NCBI GenBank assembly: GCA_041687695.1
Contig: JAWLBL010000044.1
Location: 1 to 34,461, forward strand
Direction: 5' to 3'
Source of the DNA: Myxococcota bacterium
Lineage (GTDB): Bacteria; Myxococcota_A; UBA9042; PHBI01; JAWLBL01
DNA: 34,461 nt
Position 1 is the stretch's first letter; each line of letters begins with the position of its first letter. Positions 425 to 23,341 of the stretch are shown here, one piece after another. The position numbers and the translations under genes were made by a program. The notes under the pieces are model-generated. The model did no database searches. It saw nothing but the letters and a program-made list of their open reading frames with translations, and had not been told where the DNA came from.

Positions 425-1483
425 TCACCGTGAGATGGCCTCGAGGGCGCGGCGCTCGACGCGGCGCAGGAGCTCGGCCAGGGCGGTGCGGGCGGGGCTG
501 GGGGGCAGGGGGGCGAGGCCGGCCGTCGCCTGCGACAGCTCGGCGCGCAGGCGGGAGAGGACGCGCTCGGGCGCACCCGACGTTCGCACCCGCGCGGCGA
601 CCTCGGCGCAGCGCTCGGGGGTAGCTCGTCCGGTGGCCAAGTCGGCCAGCGACGCCGCCAAGGTGGGGTCGGCCTCGAGCGCGTAGACCAGGGGCAGGGT
701 GGGGGTGCCGCCTACCAGGTCCTGGCCCAGCTCCTTGCCCAGGGCCTGGGGGTCGGCGCCCAGGTCCAGGAGGTCGTCGGCCAGCTGGAAGGCCACGCCC
801 AGGTGACGCCCCAGCTGGTCCAGGCGCGCCTCGACGACCGGGCCGGCTTGGGCCGCGCGGGCGCCGCCCCAGGTGGCGAAGGCGAAGAGCGCCCCGGTCT
901 TGCAGGCCGCGATCTCGAGGCAATCGCGCTCGGTGGCGGGAGCGCCGCCGCGCCGCTCGAGCTGCAGCAGCTCGCCGCGGGCCAGCTCGCGGGCGACCTC
1001 GACCGCGCGGGCCATCAGGGCGGCGTCGTTGGCCGCCAGCAGCGCCTCGAGCGCCGCGAAGAAGCAGTAGTCGCCGGCCAGGACGGCGACCGAGTTGCCG
1101 TAGACGACGCGCGCGGTGGGCTGGCCGCGGCGCTGCTCGCCCTGGTCGATGACGTCGTCGTGCAGCAGGGTGCCCGTGTGCAGCAGCTCGACCGCCGAGG
1201 CGACCGGCAGCGCGGCCTCGGGGCGGCCGCCGGCGGCCTGGGCGGCCAACATGACCAGGGCCGGACGCAGGCGCTTGCCGCCCGCCTCGAACAGGGCGCC
1301 CGCGGCCTCGCGGGCCTGTCCTGGCAGGGTCGTGAGCCAGGCCTCGACGCCCTGCCTCACGAGGGCGTCGAGCTGGCGGTGCAGCTCGGCCAGCTCGGCC
1401 AGGTGCTGCGCCGGGCCGGGCAGGCCATCGGCCAGGCGCTCGAGCGTCGCTGGCGACAGCGGGGCGGCGGCGACCACGCTCAA
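425..1483 (-). CDS. trans-polyprenyl diphosphate synthase (IspB/HepT-like, probably long-chain)
   Basis: C-terminal part of ORF 425..2395: GGKRLRP, FARM LLHDDVID + RRG, KTG, SARM FQLADDLLD. A small residue (G) five positions before FARM suggests long-chain product. Start is TTG 1483 (overlaps upstream TGA) or GTG 1477. Confidence 0.9.
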   Translation of the reverse strand: MSVVAAAPLSPATLERLADGLPGPAQHLAELAELHRQLDALVRQGVEAWLTTLPGQAREAAGALFEAGGKRLRPALVMLAAQAAGGRPEAALPVASAVELLHTGTLLHDDVIDQGEQRRGQPTARVVYGNSVAVLAGDYCFFAALEALLAANDAALMARAVEVARELARGELLQLERRGGAPATERDCLEIAACKTGALFAFATWGGARAAQAGPVVEARLDQLGRHLGVAFQLADDLLDLGADPQALGKELGQDLVGGTPTLPLVYALEADPTLAASLADLATGRATPERCAEVAARVRTSGAPERVLSRLRAELSQATAGLAPLPPSPARTALAELLRRVERRALEAISR

Positions 1484-2823
1484 CCCCACAGGACGCCGCC
1501 GGCCATCAGCAGGCCGGCGACCAGGTGCAGGCCGATGGTGGCGGCGTTGGCGCGGACCAACTCGCGGTCCTGGTAGTGACGGAACAGATGCTGGGTGGCC
1601 CACAGGGCGAGCGGGACGCCGGCCAGCATCCACAGAGCGCCGGCGGGGACCAGGTCGGCCGCGACCAGGGCGACGGCGGAGCCGAAGGCGGCGACCATCA
1701 GCGCCAGGTAGCCCCAGCGGGCCGCGGCCTTGCCGAGGACCACCACCAGGTGGTTCTTGCCGGTCAGGGCGTCGCTGCGCGCGTCGGGGAACTCGTTGAC
1801 CCACAGGATGGCGGTGGTCAGCAGCCCGACCGGCAGGCCGGCGAGGAAGGCGCGGGCGTCGAGCTGGCCCGAGACGACGTAGGCCATGCCGGCCAGCATC
1901 AGCGGGCCGAAGTTGAGGCCGATGAACAACTCGCCCAGCCCCTTGCGGGCGACCAGGCGCAGGGGCGGGGCGGTGTAGAAGATGGCCGAGAAGGCGCCGA
2001 TGGCGCCGAAGACGAGCAGCTCGGGCCCGCGGACCGTCAGCAGGACCGCGCCGATGGCGGTGGCGACGGCCAGCGCGGCGAGGCCGACGTTGCGCATGCC
2101 CTTGGGCGAGACGAGGCCCAGCTCGATGGCGCGGCTGCCGCCGCTGAACGGCATGAAGTAGTCGGTGTTGGCCTGGTCGGTGCCGCTGGTCCAGTCGTAG
2201 TAGTCGTTGAGGGTGTTGGCCGCGACGTGCAGGGCCAGGCCGCCGACCATCGCCAGGGAGAACAGCCCCCATGGGAAGGCGCCCGCGACGTCGCCCCAGG
2301 CCACGGCCAGGGCCGCGCCGAGCAGCAGCGGGACGAGGGAGGCCGTCAGGAAGGGCGCGCGGGTGATGACGAGCCACTTGAAGACGCGGGTCCACAGCGA
2401 GATGGGGGGCATCGCCTCGGCCACCGGCACGTCCGGCCGCGGCGTCGTGACCCCGCAGTAGCCGATCTGGACGCCGTTCTTCTTGGTGGGCGTGATCTTG
2501 ATGTCGGCGGCGAAGGGCGTGCCGTCCTTTCGCACGAAGACGGTGCGGCCCTCGAAGGCGCCTTCGCGGCGCGCCGTCTCCAGCCAGCTCGCCACGTGGC
2601 CCAGGACCACCAGGCCCGGGCTGAACAGGCTCACCCGCGCCTTGCCGACGACCTCGTCCGCCGAGTAGCCGAAGACGGCCTCGGCGTCCTTGCCGAAGGT
2701 CTCGAGGCGCCCCTCGAGGTCGCAGGTGATGACGCTCTTGAGCCGCTTGCCGGTTGCAACGGCGGCTTCAGTCGAGGTCTTCGTCGCCGCCTCCGCCTTC
2801 GCTGCCGATCGTGTCGTCGTCAT
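1480..2823 (-). CDS. menA: N-terminal PAS domain fused to 1,4-dihydroxy-2-naphthoate prenyltransferase (MenA/UbiA family)
   Basis: PAS/PAC motifs (ITCDLEGRL...AEAVFGYSADEVVGK...VRKDGTPF) followed by MenA motifs TRAPFL, NDYYDWTSGTD, GGSR, YTAPP, GLGE, NEFPDARSDALTGK and many TM helices. ATG 2823 has a GAGGAGG RBS. Confidence 0.85.
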   Translation of the reverse strand: MTTTRSAAKAEAATKTSTEAAVATGKRLKSVITCDLEGRLETFGKDAEAVFGYSADEVVGKARVSLFSPGLVVLGHVASWLETARREGAFEGRTVFVRKDGTPFAADIKITPTKKNGVQIGYCGVTTPRPDVPVAEAMPPISLWTRVFKWLVITRAPFLTASLVPLLLGAALAVAWGDVAGAFPWGLFSLAMVGGLALHVAANTLNDYYDWTSGTDQANTDYFMPFSGGSRAIELGLVSPKGMRNVGLAALAVATAIGAVLLTVRGPELLVFGAIGAFSAIFYTAPPLRLVARKGLGELFIGLNFGPLMLAGMAYVVSGQLDARAFLAGLPVGLLTTAILWVNEFPDARSDALTGKNHLVVVLGKAAARWGYLALMVAAFGSAVALVAADLVPAGALWMLAGVPLALWATQHLFRHYQDRELVRANAATIGLHLVAGLLMAGGVLWG

Positions 2824-3403
2824 GGCTGTCGCCTCCTCGGCGGGCGACGCCGCCCGCCAGCATCCCGATGAGGCCACGCACGTCCAGCGTGGCCGTTCGA
2901 ATGAGCGTGGTGATGGCGCCGCCGACCAGCTCGGCGAGCTGCCGCATGCGCCGGATGCGCTCGAGCGCCAGCGGCGAGGCCTCGCCCGAGGCCCGCGCCA
3001 GACGCTCGGCCTCGCGCAGCTCCGTCTGCACGCGCGCGACGAGGTCGTTCTCGCGGCGCGACAGCACGCGCGTAATCATCTTCATCAGATCGGTGCGCGC
3101 CCCGTAGCGCCACACGCTGTCGCGCGGATCGCGTACCCGCTCGATGACGCGCCACTGCTCGAGCTCGCGGATGAGCATGGACACCGCGCCCTTGCTCAGC
3201 TCCAGCGTCTCCTGCAGCTCGGCGGCGCTCATCGCGCGGTCGCGCAGGTACAGCAGCGCCCAGATGCGCCCGTGGTTGCGCTTGAAGTTCCAGAACTCGA
3301 TGACGTGGCCCACCGCGCTGACGGCCAGCGCCTCCCAGGCGCGCAGGGACTCGGCCGATTCGCTGGGCTCGGGCCCGTCGGGGCTGTCGTCGGACGGGGA
3401 CAT
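2768..3403 (-). CDS. GbsR/MarR-family winged-helix transcriptional regulator
   Basis: VGHVIEFWNFKRNHGRIWALLYL...MSAAELQETLELSKGAVSMLIRELEQW is a GbsR-type wHTH signature. ATG 3403 with GAGG RBS. Its acidic tail overlaps the menA start by 56 bp. Confidence 0.85.
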   Translation of the reverse strand: MSPSDDSPDGPEPSESAESLRAWEALAVSAVGHVIEFWNFKRNHGRIWALLYLRDRAMSAAELQETLELSKGAVSMLIRELEQWRVIERVRDPRDSVWRYGARTDLMKMITRVLSRRENDLVARVQTELREAERLARASGEASPLALERIRRMRQLAELVGGAITTLIRTATLDVRGLIGMLAGGVARRGGDSHDDDTIGSEGGGGDEDLD

Positions 3404-3442: not shown

Positions 3443-3460
3443 GTTCAAGACGTTTTGAAC
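3443..3460. promoter_or_regulatory. near-perfect 18-bp palindrome, probable operator of the GbsR-type regulator
   Basis: GTTCAAGACGTTTTGAAC (one mismatched pair) in an AT-rich patch 40 bp upstream of the regulator ATG, abutting a -35-like TTGCAG on the minus strand (3460-3465). Confidence 0.6.
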
Positions 3461-3521
3461 TGCAAGCTTCAAGTCGCAGGGGCGAACATCGGGCGCCTTC
3501 CGAGGAGCATCGAGCAGGACA

Positions 3522-3612
3522 CCGGGACAGTGGCCGGGACCGCGACCGGGGCCGAGGCCGGGACGGTGGCCGGGACCGTGACGGGGGCCCGGGACCGTGG
3601 CCGCGACTGGGG
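3522..3612. repeat. degenerate hexamer tandem repeat (CCGNGR), about 15 units
   Basis: ccggga cagtgg ccggga ccgcga ccgggg ccgagg ccggga cggtgg ccggga ccgtga ... in the intergenic space. Confidence 0.75.
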
Positions 3613-3639
3613 ACCGCCACGGGCGACCGTCGGCCAGGC

Positions 3640-20917: not shown

Positions 20918-22471
20918 TCAGTTGGTGGCGGAGTTCTTGGCTCCCGGCGTGCCCTTGTTCTCGGTCGGGCCAAAGGTCTTGGTAGCCGTCTTCCAGGACG
21001 ACAGCTCGGCGCCGTTGTTCGTGTGCGAGATGCGCTCGAGGCTGGCGCCGAGCTTGAACACCTTGGGCTCGTCGAAGGCGCTGTAGCGCATCTGGTCCAC
21101 GAACTGTCCCTGCGCGTTGTACAGCAGGACCGAGCCGATGGTGTTCGGCAGGTAGAAGGCCTGGCCGTAGGCGTAGTCGACCGGGACGCCGCCGTTGAGG
21201 GTCGAGTTCGACGCGGCGCCGAGCACGAAGTAGCCCTTGGCGGGCACGACCGCGCCCGCGCCGATGAGGGTCACCTTCTGCGAGCCGCAGTCGCGGACGG
21301 ACCAGCCGTCGAGGCTCACCGGGTCGTTGCCCGGGTTGTACAGCTCGATCCACTCCTGCATCGTGTCCTCGCCGAACGGGTCGGGCATGACCTCGTTGAC
21401 GACCAGCTGGTGGGTGCCGAGGACGTCCATGCCGACGACGCACTGGGCCTTGATGCACTTGCTGAGGGCGCCCTCGCTGCCCTTGACCAGCACGACGAGA
21501 TCGTCGTCGGTGCGCGGCTCGAGCTTGTGGTTGCCGAAGGTGTAGTGCAGCGGCCCCGTGATGGAGGCGAAGTGGTCGCCCAGGCGCGCCGGGAACTTCA
21601 CGGCGACGTCGTCGACGCGGAGGCCGCCGGTCACCTCGAACTCGCCGTAGTCGTGCGGGCAGTCGGGCTGGGTGTGGGTCGTCTTCACGTCGGTCACCTG
21701 GACCAGGACGCCCTCGAACAGCTCGGCGACGGGGCCGGCGGTCGCGACGTGCGACGGGTGCGCGATGGGGTAGGGCGCGGGCGCGGGGCCCTGGTCCTTG
21801 ACCGTCCACTTGGTCAGGTAGATCTGGCTGTTGTCGAAGTACTCGGAGTAGCTGCCCTCGACGTCGACGACGGTGCCGGGCACCAGATCGCCCGTGAAGT
21901 CGCCATGCGAGAAGACGGCGATGCCGCTGTAGGGGCCGCCCTCGGGCTCCTGCACGAAGAAGGTGTCGCCGAAGCGGGCCGTGACGATGACGTCCTTGAC
22001 GACCACCTCGACGCCGTTCGAGCCGATGGGCGCGGGCGTGATGTGGTCGGGGCAGCCCGGGTTCTGGAGATCGTAGATGTTGCGATCGCCGCCGGGCGGC
22101 GAGCACAGCGTGAAGTCGACCACGACGTCCGGCTCGGGGATCGGCGGGGCGGTGTCGGTGGGCACGTCCTCGGCCACGTCGGGGTCCACCGGGACGTCGG
22201 GGGGCGGCTCGACGTCTTCGAGCGCGTCCGGCTCGGTCGCGTCGTCGAGGACGTCGGTGGCGTCGTCGAGCGCGTCGGGCTCGGGCGTCGCGTCGGCGTC
22301 GTCCTCCGGCTCGGGGACGTCACCCTTGGCGGTGTCGCCGCCGAGATCGTCGACGCCGAGGTCCGGCAGCGGGCCGGTCGCGCTGCCGGACGGATCCGAG
22401 CAGGCGGCGAGCGCGAGGGACAAGGCGATGGGGGCGAGGCGGCGGGCCGTGAGGCGGATGGGGTGGCGCAT
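20918..22471 (-). CDS. lipoprotein with acidic linker, two OB-fold-like modules and a C-terminal lamin-tail domain
   Basis: ATG 22471, lipobox LAAC; IYDLQ...VIVTA...FFVQE...YSGIAVF...PGTVVDVEG.YSEY; ELFEGVLVQV; VVNEVMPDP...EWIELYN...GTPGAKN. Confidence 0.82.
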   Translation of the reverse strand: MRHPIRLTARRLAPIALSLALAACSDPSGSATGPLPDLGVDDLGGDTAKGDVPEPEDDADATPEPDALDDATDVLDDATEPDALEDVEPPPDVPVDPDVAEDVPTDTAPPIPEPDVVVDFTLCSPPGGDRNIYDLQNPGCPDHITPAPIGSNGVEVVVKDVIVTARFGDTFFVQEPEGGPYSGIAVFSHGDFTGDLVPGTVVDVEGSYSEYFDNSQIYLTKWTVKDQGPAPAPYPIAHPSHVATAGPVAELFEGVLVQVTDVKTTHTQPDCPHDYGEFEVTGGLRVDDVAVKFPARLGDHFASITGPLHYTFGNHKLEPRTDDDLVVLVKGSEGALSKCIKAQCVVGMDVLGTHQLVVNEVMPDPFGEDTMQEWIELYNPGNDPVSLDGWSVRDCGSQKVTLIGAGAVVPAKGYFVLGAASNSTLNGGVPVDYAYGQAFYLPNTIGSVLLYNAQGQFVDQMRYSAFDEPKVFKLGASLERISHTNNGAELSSWKTATKTFGPTENKGTPGAKNSATN

Positions 22472-22521
22472 GGGCGCGCAGCCTAGGGATCGGGATCGGC
22501 TGCGGTCAAGCGACAAGCGCG

Positions 22522-22707
22522 CTACTGCGCGATGTCCAGGGACGCCCGCGCCGGCGGGGCCTCGCGGGGGCCGTCCGGGGGCGCGTCGTCGCGGCCGCCG
22601 AGCACCCAGAAGGTGGCCCCGAGCGACGCCGCGAGCAGCGCGATGAGAATAAGGACGCCCATCGACCACTTGAGTGGAACGTTGCGTCGCGTCGGTTCGC
22701 GTGGCAC
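22522..22707 (-). CDS. possible small single-TM protein
   Basis: Hydrophobic stretch MGVLILIALLAASLGATFWVLGG. Fills the gap upstream of the lipoprotein gene. Start GTG 22707 or ATG 22662. Confidence 0.4.
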   Translation of the reverse strand: MPREPTRRNVPLKWSMGVLILIALLAASLGATFWVLGGRDDAPPDGPREAPPARASLDIAQ

Positions 22708-22717
22708 GGGGGCGAGT

Positions 22718-23341
22718 ATGAGCTTGATACGAGGGACGGGCCAGGCGGTGGTCGCGGCCACCCTGGCGGTGGGCGTCGCCTGCGGGCTGGGCTGGGCGTC
22801 GCGGCTGGTCTACATCGCGGGCCTGTGGCCCTTGACCATCGGCCTCGCCGCCGGCGCGGGGGCCGCCTTCGCTGCGCTCGTCCTGGGCGGGCTGCCCGGG
22901 CGCGGGCCACGGGTCGCCGCCGTCGTCGCCTCGGTGCTGGGGCTCGGGACCCTCGCCGCCATGGACGACCTGCACTTCCGCGCCGCCTGGCGCGCCGATC
23001 TCGCCGCCGCGCGCTTCGCCGACAGCGGCGCCGGGCCGACCGAGGCCCTCGAGGCCGACGAGGTCGCCTTCTGGGGCGACAACGCCGACGTGCTGCTCGA
23101 CGCCCAGGCCATGGCCGACACCGGCGCCCAGGGCTTCGCCGGGCGCTGGCTGCTGCGCGCCGACGCGGGCGTGCGCCTGTTCGGTGGCTGGCAGGCCAGC
23201 CGAGGCCTCCCCGTCGGCGTCTGGGGCGCCGCGATCTGGTCCCTGCTCGAGCTGGCCCTCGCCATCGCCGTCGCCCTCGGGGTCATCCGCCGCGTCGAGC
23301 GCCGCCTCCTCGCCCCGCAGCCCGCGCCGACCACCGCCTGA
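22718..23341 (+). CDS. hypothetical membrane protein (about 4 TM)
   Basis: Three N-terminal and one C-terminal hydrophobic segments, high-GC3 codon usage. Start placed at ATG 22718. Confidence 0.7.
   Translation: MSLIRGTGQAVVAATLAVGVACGLGWASRLVYIAGLWPLTIGLAAGAGAAFAALVLGGLPGRGPRVAAVVASVLGLGTLAAMDDLHFRAAWRADLAAARFADSGAGPTEALEADEVAFWGDNADVLLDAQAMADTGAQGFAGRWLLRADAGVRLFGGWQASRGLPVGVWGAAIWSLLELALAIAVALGVIRRVERRLLAPQPAPTTA

Follow-up and report, generated by a model that had tools for sequence, protein, structure and literature searches.

A PAS domain fused to a MenA-like prenyltransferase in a putative reduced menaquinone operon of a Myxococcota bacterium with no detectable naphthoquinone ring pathway

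The closest described counterparts of the gene analysed here are MenA, the DHNA polyprenyltransferase, and UBIAD1, the vertebrate MK-4 synthase, which prenylates menadione in organisms devoid of a ring pathway, an activity also reported for gut bacteria (accessible part of PMC7928036). Ring synthesis is likewise missing and the prenyltransferase retained in the menA plus menG/ubiE pairs exemplified by Prevotella melaninogenica; salvage of DHNA by menA plus ubiE has been described, with the use of DHNA, menadione and MK-4 being strain-specific (accessible part of PMC5738691), and the accessible part of PMC8129789 contains nothing on the origin of the quinone ring of Thermoflexus. PAS domains are represented by sensors carrying heme (FixL, DosP), FAD (NifL, Aer) or FMN (LOV), and the GbsR family of repressors comprises GbsR, OpuAR, CudC and CydE, members of which repress adjoining operons, cydAB among them (accessible part of PMC6207618); the word menaquinone does not occur in the main text of that paper. 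Literature searches, outside the reach of which most subscription journals lie, yielded no GbsR-type regulator of men genes and no study of a PAS-MenA/UbiA protein, in line with the original prediction that such a fusion has no characterised example; searches of the same scope on MenA substrates and on Marine Group III quinones also returned no study of the fusion protein.

The window, that is, the whole stretch of 34,461 nucleotides that was analysed, belongs to a Myxococcota genome estimated to be 99.27% complete (the host genome, G000) and contains a three-gene cassette preceded by a palindrome:

425..1477, minus strand: polyprenyl diphosphate synthase of 350 aa, its gene beginning 2 bases past the stop of the fusion gene
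1480..2823, minus strand: PAS plus MenA-like (UbiA-family) prenyltransferase fusion gene, 447 aa, an uninterrupted open frame
2440..2739, minus strand: PAS domain of the fusion, residues 29-128, delimited by Pfam/NCBIfam matches, residue conservation and fold
2398..2439, minus strand: Pro-rich linker, residues 129-142, from the alignment and the predicted structure
1483..2397, minus strand: MenA-like membrane prenyltransferase domain, residues 143-447, from the profile match and the nearest structure
2176..2217, minus strand: first Asp-rich motif (N203, N206, D207, D210, D216), invariant in the alignment
1771..1797, minus strand: second Asp-rich motif (N343, D347, D351), invariant in the alignment
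2768..3403, minus strand: GbsR/MarR-type regulator of 211 aa whose gene runs into the start of the fusion gene; GbsR-type by resemblance only
3443..3460, no strand assigned: palindrome GTTCAA-N6-TTGAAC, predicted operator, 40 bases upstream of the regulator gene

The in-frame fusion, predicted from the sequence to join a PAS domain of about 100 residues to MenA, is genuine, both parts of the single frame being recognised by Pfam and NCBIfam models and the PAS domain having the expected extent. The protein scores above the cut-off of the sensory box model TIGR00229 and slightly below that of PAS_9 (residues 31-120, 26.8 bits versus 27), and the UbiA model PF01040 matches residues 168-423 with 109 bits (cut-off 34.2); residues 1-28 form a host-specific N-terminal extension of low prediction confidence. 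The same fused layout recurs in the 120 homologs listed, at 59%-66% identity and 90%-98% coverage, and proteins sharing it were found across several phyla, which, together with a GC3 of 0.98 in the PAS and the enzyme domain alike, rules out an assembly chimera. The Pro-rich linker is present, as predicted, and conserved; however, in the AlphaFold2 model (pLDDT 90.7, pTM 0.86) it is predicted to be ordered (pLDDT 95-97), so that it is probably not a flexible tether, and an ordered linker would allow the PAS domain to sit at a fixed position on the enzyme.

The description of the enzyme part as a complete MenA holds for its motifs, both Asp-rich motifs being unchanged in all 120 homologs aligned from the matches listed, but not for its family scores. 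Membership in the UbiA superfamily is evident from the PF01040 match, the two Asp-rich motifs and the membrane fold, and among NCBIfam models those of MenA rank at the top, yet every one of them remains below its cut-off (TIGR00751, 88.2 bits versus 102.15; PRK06080, 146.5 bits versus 264); the fusions of G018, G029, G035 and G036 narrowly exceed the TIGR00751 cut-off. The fusion thus shares with MenA the fold, the motifs, the top-scoring family and a place in an operon next to a regulator and a synthase of the same kind, whereas it differs in its N-terminal PAS domain, in its sub-cut-off scores, in an identity of 33%-38% to the ordinary MenA proteins found in relatives, in never co-occurring with menB in the 50 carriers listed and in often lacking menG. 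Assignment to MqnP, the futalosine prenyltransferase, is contradicted by the absence of PF02621/MqnC from the host and of NF041584 from the matches of the fusion. The nearest solved structure of the enzyme domain is UBIAD1 (PDB 8djk; Foldseek E 1.6e-8, phmmer E 1.4e-10), but the two are only 24% identical, UBIAD1 is a eukaryotic protein without PAS, and a common substrate is putative. Foldseek also matched the domain to archaeal UbiA, and no bacterial MenA was among the PDB matches. Just eight enzyme-domain positions distinguish the PAS clade from PAS-less relatives, and none of them could be linked to a substrate.

No menB, menD, MqnA/D, MqnC, menG or UbiD was detected above cut-off in the host genome, and Men proteins of relatives used as queries retrieved from it paralog-level matches or none. 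A 234.7-bit match to MenE proved to be a long-chain acyl-CoA ligase without men neighbours, and the best match to MenB is a short-chain enoyl-CoA hydratase (crotonase) encoded beside a hydroxybutyryl-CoA dehydrogenase. The fusion is the sole MenA-like gene of this genome, the five other UbiA-family genes being a heme O synthase, a decaprenyl-phosphate phosphoribosyltransferase and three to which no function could be assigned at E 1e-12. Given that the genome also encodes NuoH and a QrcA/QrcB-like pair adjoining the heme O synthase, the host likely needs a quinone. Among the 48 carrier genomes listed, a count that omits L049 (same genome as L026), menB above cut-off occurs in none, and it is also absent from the host genome and G207; menD was found in 0 of 5 carriers tested, and PF02621 is matched in 3 of the 48, strongly in one. 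In the sample of the host's phylum, menB is present in 116 of 201 genomes, compared with 0 of 11 carriers from this phylum; the naive P of 8e-5 overstates the contrast, given the kinship among genomes and a completeness that is not known. The corresponding control in Anaerolineae is weak, since most of these genomes lack ring markers anyway (113 of 151 are without both, 38 have either). Gene loss mimicked by incomplete assembly is unlikely for the host and for the carrier G072 (99%) and may hold for many other carriers listed, which are mostly MAGs or single-cell genomes of unstated completeness. With no ring pathway found, neither menB nor menF, menD, menC and menE, the idea of the fusion as the housekeeping, DHNA-prenylating MenA that completes a de novo pathway in its host is not supported.

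The broader link to menaquinone synthesis, by contrast, is upheld by the conservation of the family and by a regulator, a palindrome and a synthase that are common to the cassette and to men operons. In G144, a genome of the same order, the operon consists of a divergent regulator, menF, menD, menB, menA, menC-menE, a polyprenyl synthase gene and menG, and the layout in G204 is identical. The synthases of such operons in same-order relatives find their best host match in the window synthase (42%-44%), and the regulators theirs in the window regulator (31%). The latter resembles CudC weakly (NF047500, 31.4 bits), far below the cut-off of 218 that would place it with the CudC/GbsR repressors, and MarR_2 is present in its homologs. 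The palindrome has its only perfect copy in the host genome at 3443-3460; among 10 other carrier loci from the phylum, 9 have it ahead of the cassette (one with two mismatches) and the tenth is cut by a contig end. It has no copy in 373 kb of other loci and is represented by near-copies ahead of the men operons of all three relatives examined (G144, G204 and G090). Among 16 loci from a blind search for the palindrome in relatives, a synthase gene lies directly downstream in two, menF/D in one and menG in one, and in a fifth the regulator is located approximately 1.2 kb away; many other matches fall in coding sequence and look like chance, and the palindrome is only partly useful as a genome-wide regulon marker. 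A search for a sigma-70 promoter found none. The operon comparison identifies the cassette as a menaquinone operon in which the fused gene stands in the place of the menFDBACE and menG of relatives.

Scanning of species genomes with the PAS domain as the query revealed at least 52 loci, of which 49 were retained after the weak loci L050-L052 had been dropped. The gene is fused in 46 of these, split by an apparent frameshift in L008 and truncated by a contig edge in L038, and in L048 the PAS domain is encoded by a separate gene directly 5' of the enzyme gene. The carriers listed include Anaerolineae and other Chloroflexota, Myxococcota, Gammaproteobacteria, Marine Group III archaea, SAR202, Bacteroidota and Ignavibacteria and, by their record titles, represent marine, groundwater, digester and hot-spring lineages. 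Within taxa the fusion is rare: it is found in 3 of 201 genomes of the host's phylum, and in 2 of 151 Anaerolineae, while the 17 other genomes from the host's order lack it, 14 of them having an ordinary MenA. In a tree of 69 enzyme domains, built by a quick method and omitting L007, L026 and L038 as too short, the 46 fused-type enzymes, including those of the window and L008, form one group (SH-aLRT 98), with L048 outside it on a long branch; this topology suggests a single fusion event followed by horizontal spread. Stand-alone PAS proteins of approximately 105-130 aa, labelled Thermoplasmatota where named, are encoded directly upstream of a MenA-like gene in all 10 close loci, some of them near-duplicates, and the other 17 loci of that scan contain distant PAS matches without a MenA-like neighbour. 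As the split-form PAS proteins lack W80, R63 and mostly F96, a single pocket common to all family members is not assured. A PAS-less sister clade, 41%-48% identical, is present in 16 of 16 ring-less Anaerolineae, has menG as a neighbour in 4 of 10 loci inspected and resembles the menA plus menG/ubiE salvage pairs, so that salvage can evidently do without PAS. A profile search of cluster representatives returned mostly multi-PAS proteins; its 18 single-domain matches align to the fusion PAS at 42%-66%, with six reaching well into the enzyme and the others being short, and the ESM Atlas contributed generic PAS clusters only.

The PAS domain is under stronger constraint than its partner, mean identity across 43 full-length fusions being 62% for PAS and 48% for the enzyme, and 893 of 903 protein pairs being more alike in PAS than in the enzyme; C34, E37, R63, S65, S68, V73, W80, L81, F96 and G124 are invariant. 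This pattern points to PAS as a dedicated partner of the enzyme, for which some gating role is possible. The more specific proposal, that heme, flavin or a redox-active Cys in PAS gates prenylation by O2 or redox state, is improbable in our judgement. It had named one His and two Cys residues as candidates, of which only C34 is retained throughout (43 of 43 fused and 43 of 46 split-form proteins); H76 (codon 2596-2598) occurs in 113 of 120 close homologs but in 31 of 43 diverse fused and 0 of 46 split-form proteins, and C123 (codon 2455-2457) in 40 of 43 and 0 of 46, respectively. In the alignment, C34 occupies the position at which Aer and NifL have a Thr preceding Asp, and consequently may be structural. 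The fold does speak for a cofactor, with TM scores of 0.81-0.87 against the FAD-PAS domains of NifL and Aer and of 0.73-0.77 against heme-PAS domains (Z 13.9-15.7 for the cofactor sensors), but the best structural match is 3lyx (Z 17.2, rmsd 1.2), the title of which names no cofactor, followed by the MAP3K PAS 5iu1, Aer, MmoS and NifL. Similarly, of the two residues that mark FAD-PAS domains, the helix Trp of Aer and NifL has a counterpart in W80, whereas the position of their strand Asn, which contacts flavin, is taken by the invariant F96. H76 is located seven residues past a conserved Pro, which is the spacing of the FixL heme ligand, but the FixL alignment requires three additional residues and heme-PAS domains are characterised by a conserved proximal His on the long helix; the photoactive Cys motif of LOV domains is absent in the alignment with phototropin LOV1. 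Thus, binding of heme, FAD or FMN in any of the known ways appears unlikely from residue conservation, the carriers are scattered over all the habitats listed above, and, unlike in the sensors, the partner here is a membrane enzyme.

The distribution of menG bears on the choice of head group. Among 50 distinct carriers listed (the host included; G072 and G023, the same genome, counted once), menG/ubiE is present above cut-off in 29 and missing in 21, the host and G072 among the latter. Canonical menA (150-291 bits) accompanies the fusion in 12 carriers, all 12 of which have menG, adjacent to menA in four; the other 38 comprise the 21 without menG and 17 with menG/ubiE but no canonical menA, the gene possibly being UbiE in the four Gammaproteobacteria among them. 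By contrast, all five menB-positive relatives possess menG; one of them, G090, belongs to the same genus as G072, a carrier without the gene. Since the 12 carriers keep the canonical pair, the fusion must do something that the pair does not, and this co-occurrence, together with the loss of menG, fits an already methylated acceptor outside the range of the pair. The 17 carriers with menG alone and the genes directly upstream of the fusion in three loci (menG in L045 and L046, a MenI-like thioesterase gene in L044) fit DHNA as the substrate instead, and the enzyme may accept both head groups.

We infer every chemical step of the following scheme from what was observed, namely the fusion itself, the lack of genes for ring synthesis and methylation, a regulator, palindrome and synthase common to the cassette and men operons, and the constant pairing of this PAS with this clade of enzymes. 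We favour, tentatively and at a little less than an even chance for the scheme as a whole, a cassette that amounts to a reduced menaquinone operon and likely makes a respiratory quinone by salvage. The synthase would provide the tail, which the MenA-like domain would join to a scavenged naphthoquinone, likely already methylated (of the menadione/menadiol type, as with UBIAD1); the PAS domain, placed on the cytoplasmic cap, would bind the scarce ring and deliver it to the catalytic site or activate that site; and repression of the cassette by the regulator likely operates at the palindrome. That the naphthoquinone comes from outside by salvage is the best-founded element and is probable. If it holds, preference for a methylated ring is somewhat favoured, with indirect support from the absence of menG in 21 of 50 carriers and from UBIAD1 as the nearest structure, and we identified no natural source of free menadione. 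The role given to PAS, with its placement on the cap, its capture of the ring and its supply or activation of the catalytic site, is a conjecture that falls short of an even chance.

Demethylmenaquinone can serve as a respiratory quinone, and the enzyme might simply prenylate cross-fed DHNA in the manner of ordinary MenA, producing demethylmenaquinone where menG is lacking and menaquinone where it is present, with PAS as a modulator. The menG and MenI-like neighbours, the occurrence of the PAS-less sister clade in menA-menG pairs and the menA plus ubiE precedent (accessible part of PMC5738691) all lend this alternative weight, but it leaves unexplained the 12 carriers that combine the fusion with canonical menA and menG, as well as the loss of menG in the host and G072 when menB-positive relatives keep it, and we regard it as rather unlikely. 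A de novo ring route of a new kind, or an acceptor other than a naphthoquinone, would suit an enzyme that falls below all MenA cut-offs and the frequency of ring-less genomes with MenA-like genes in Anaerolineae; nevertheless, the 49 loci listed share no biosynthetic neighbour beyond the synthase, the regulator, SnoaL and menG, and the cassette still has the regulator, the palindrome and the synthase that are found with true men operons, which makes this explanation very doubtful. Least probable, in our estimation, is an exchange of tails, whereby menaquinones of prey or dead cells are taken up, stripped of the foreign tail with the help of PAS and given the host's own. Such an exchange would explain why menG was lost and the synthase kept, why the fusion is not redundant with canonical menA and why PAS is strongly constrained, but no catalytic motif was found and PAS domains are not known to act as tail-removing enzymes. 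Side-chain replacement does occur in mouse gut, the responsible agent being left open, whereas human gut bacteria left side chains uncleaved in vitro (accessible part of PMC7928036). A bolder reading, which we consider rather unlikely, would see the family as a mobile vitamin-K recycling module, in which the PAS-equipped prenyltransferase captures methylated rings or strips and re-tails the menaquinones of prey and dead cells. Were this the case, predatory or scavenging bacteria and marine archaea could drop both the ring pathway and menG, and PAS would be a quinone-head receptor within a membrane enzyme, possibly part of a side-chain-removing activity.

If salvage prenylation of a menadione-type ring is the correct reading, a single transferable gene marks dependence on other organisms for respiratory quinones in uncultured lineages of Myxococcota, Anaerolineae, SAR202, Marine Group III archaea and marine Bacteroidota, for which menadione or DHNA would be candidate culture supplements. 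The fusion would then also represent a bacterial UBIAD1-like enzyme suitable for assaying head-group choice and vitamin K remodelling, and a case in which a PAS domain is coupled to a membrane biosynthetic enzyme rather than to a signalling output, and the cassette adds a predicted regulator and a predicted operator for the menaquinone genes of the host's phylum.

The absence of the ring-synthesis markers menB and PF02621 from genomes carrying the PAS-MenA-like fusion has a single strong exception, a lone PF02621 match (123 bits; L089:3990-4784), flanked by unrelated-looking genes, in the marine archaeal carrier G012.

SnoaL-like genes adjoin the fusion at two loci (L018 and L022), with the same cluster also present in L007 and L016, and in genome G401 a small gene, resembling these by eye only, is divergent from menG. 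In marine archaea, a geranylgeranyl-reductase-family gene lies 5' of the fusion in L012, and in L025, L028, L033, L034 and L049 a polyprenyl synthase gene lies downstream, convergent with genes for complex-I-type membrane subunits.

L018:5206-5670, SnoaL-like gene
L022:7258-7623, SnoaL-like gene
L102:2032-2388, similar-looking small gene
L012:900-2105, geranylgeranyl-reductase-family gene

Within the window itself, imperfect GC-rich tandem repeats with periods of 12, 13 and 18 occupy positions 3521-3629, in the interval that separates the palindrome from where the upstream Cache-HAMP histidine kinase gene ends. The ORF truncated by the contig end is one that we take to resemble a REP-associated tyrosine transposase, and two large proteins with repeated domains, taken from the ORF list only, are probably secreted.

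1-147, (-), ORF start, truncated by contig end
5562-8951, (+), large Cys- and Asp-rich protein, repeated domains
20918-22975, (-), large Cys- and Asp-rich protein, repeated domains

A related regulator and the palindrome also occur in G410, an 88%-complete genome from the same order as the host, in which no MenA-like gene was matched; its regulator (L098:9639-10103) is 56% identical to that of the window, and palindromes lie near this gene and precede a synthase gene (L097).

MenA-like enzymes were found in further architectures. In Thermoplasmatota-type loci, a stand-alone PAS gene is immediately followed on its 3' side by a MenA-like gene, and the PAS protein has an invariant His where the fusion has S68. 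At two other loci, the MenA-like protein carries an N-terminal extension of ~170 aa, without a Pfam match, and is preceded by a pyridoxamine-5'-phosphate-oxidase-family gene. Finally, in five Anaerolineae genomes, in which neither menB nor PF02621 was matched, an SsuC/TauC-type ABC permease is fused N-terminally to the MenA-like domain.

L048:5890-7262 (also L117-L126), PAS gene followed by MenA-like gene
L077:1303-3142, MenA-like with N-terminal extension
L078:1372-3211, MenA-like with N-terminal extension
L073:2214-3923, permease-MenA-like fusion
L074:2155-3855, permease-MenA-like fusion
L075:1623-3308, permease-MenA-like fusion
L076:1430-3103, permease-MenA-like fusion
L084:1317-3002, permease-MenA-like fusion

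In L075 and L076, genes for an ATPase and an NMT1-type binding protein immediately precede the permease fusion, and in G008, a genome likewise lacking matches to both markers, a canonical menA is convergent with an NMT1/ATPase/permease operon of the same type (L083:2-3076). The permease-MenA-like system is a putative uptake route for DHNA or some other quinone head; according to a 2017 article, transporters for such compounds were undescribed (PMC5738691).
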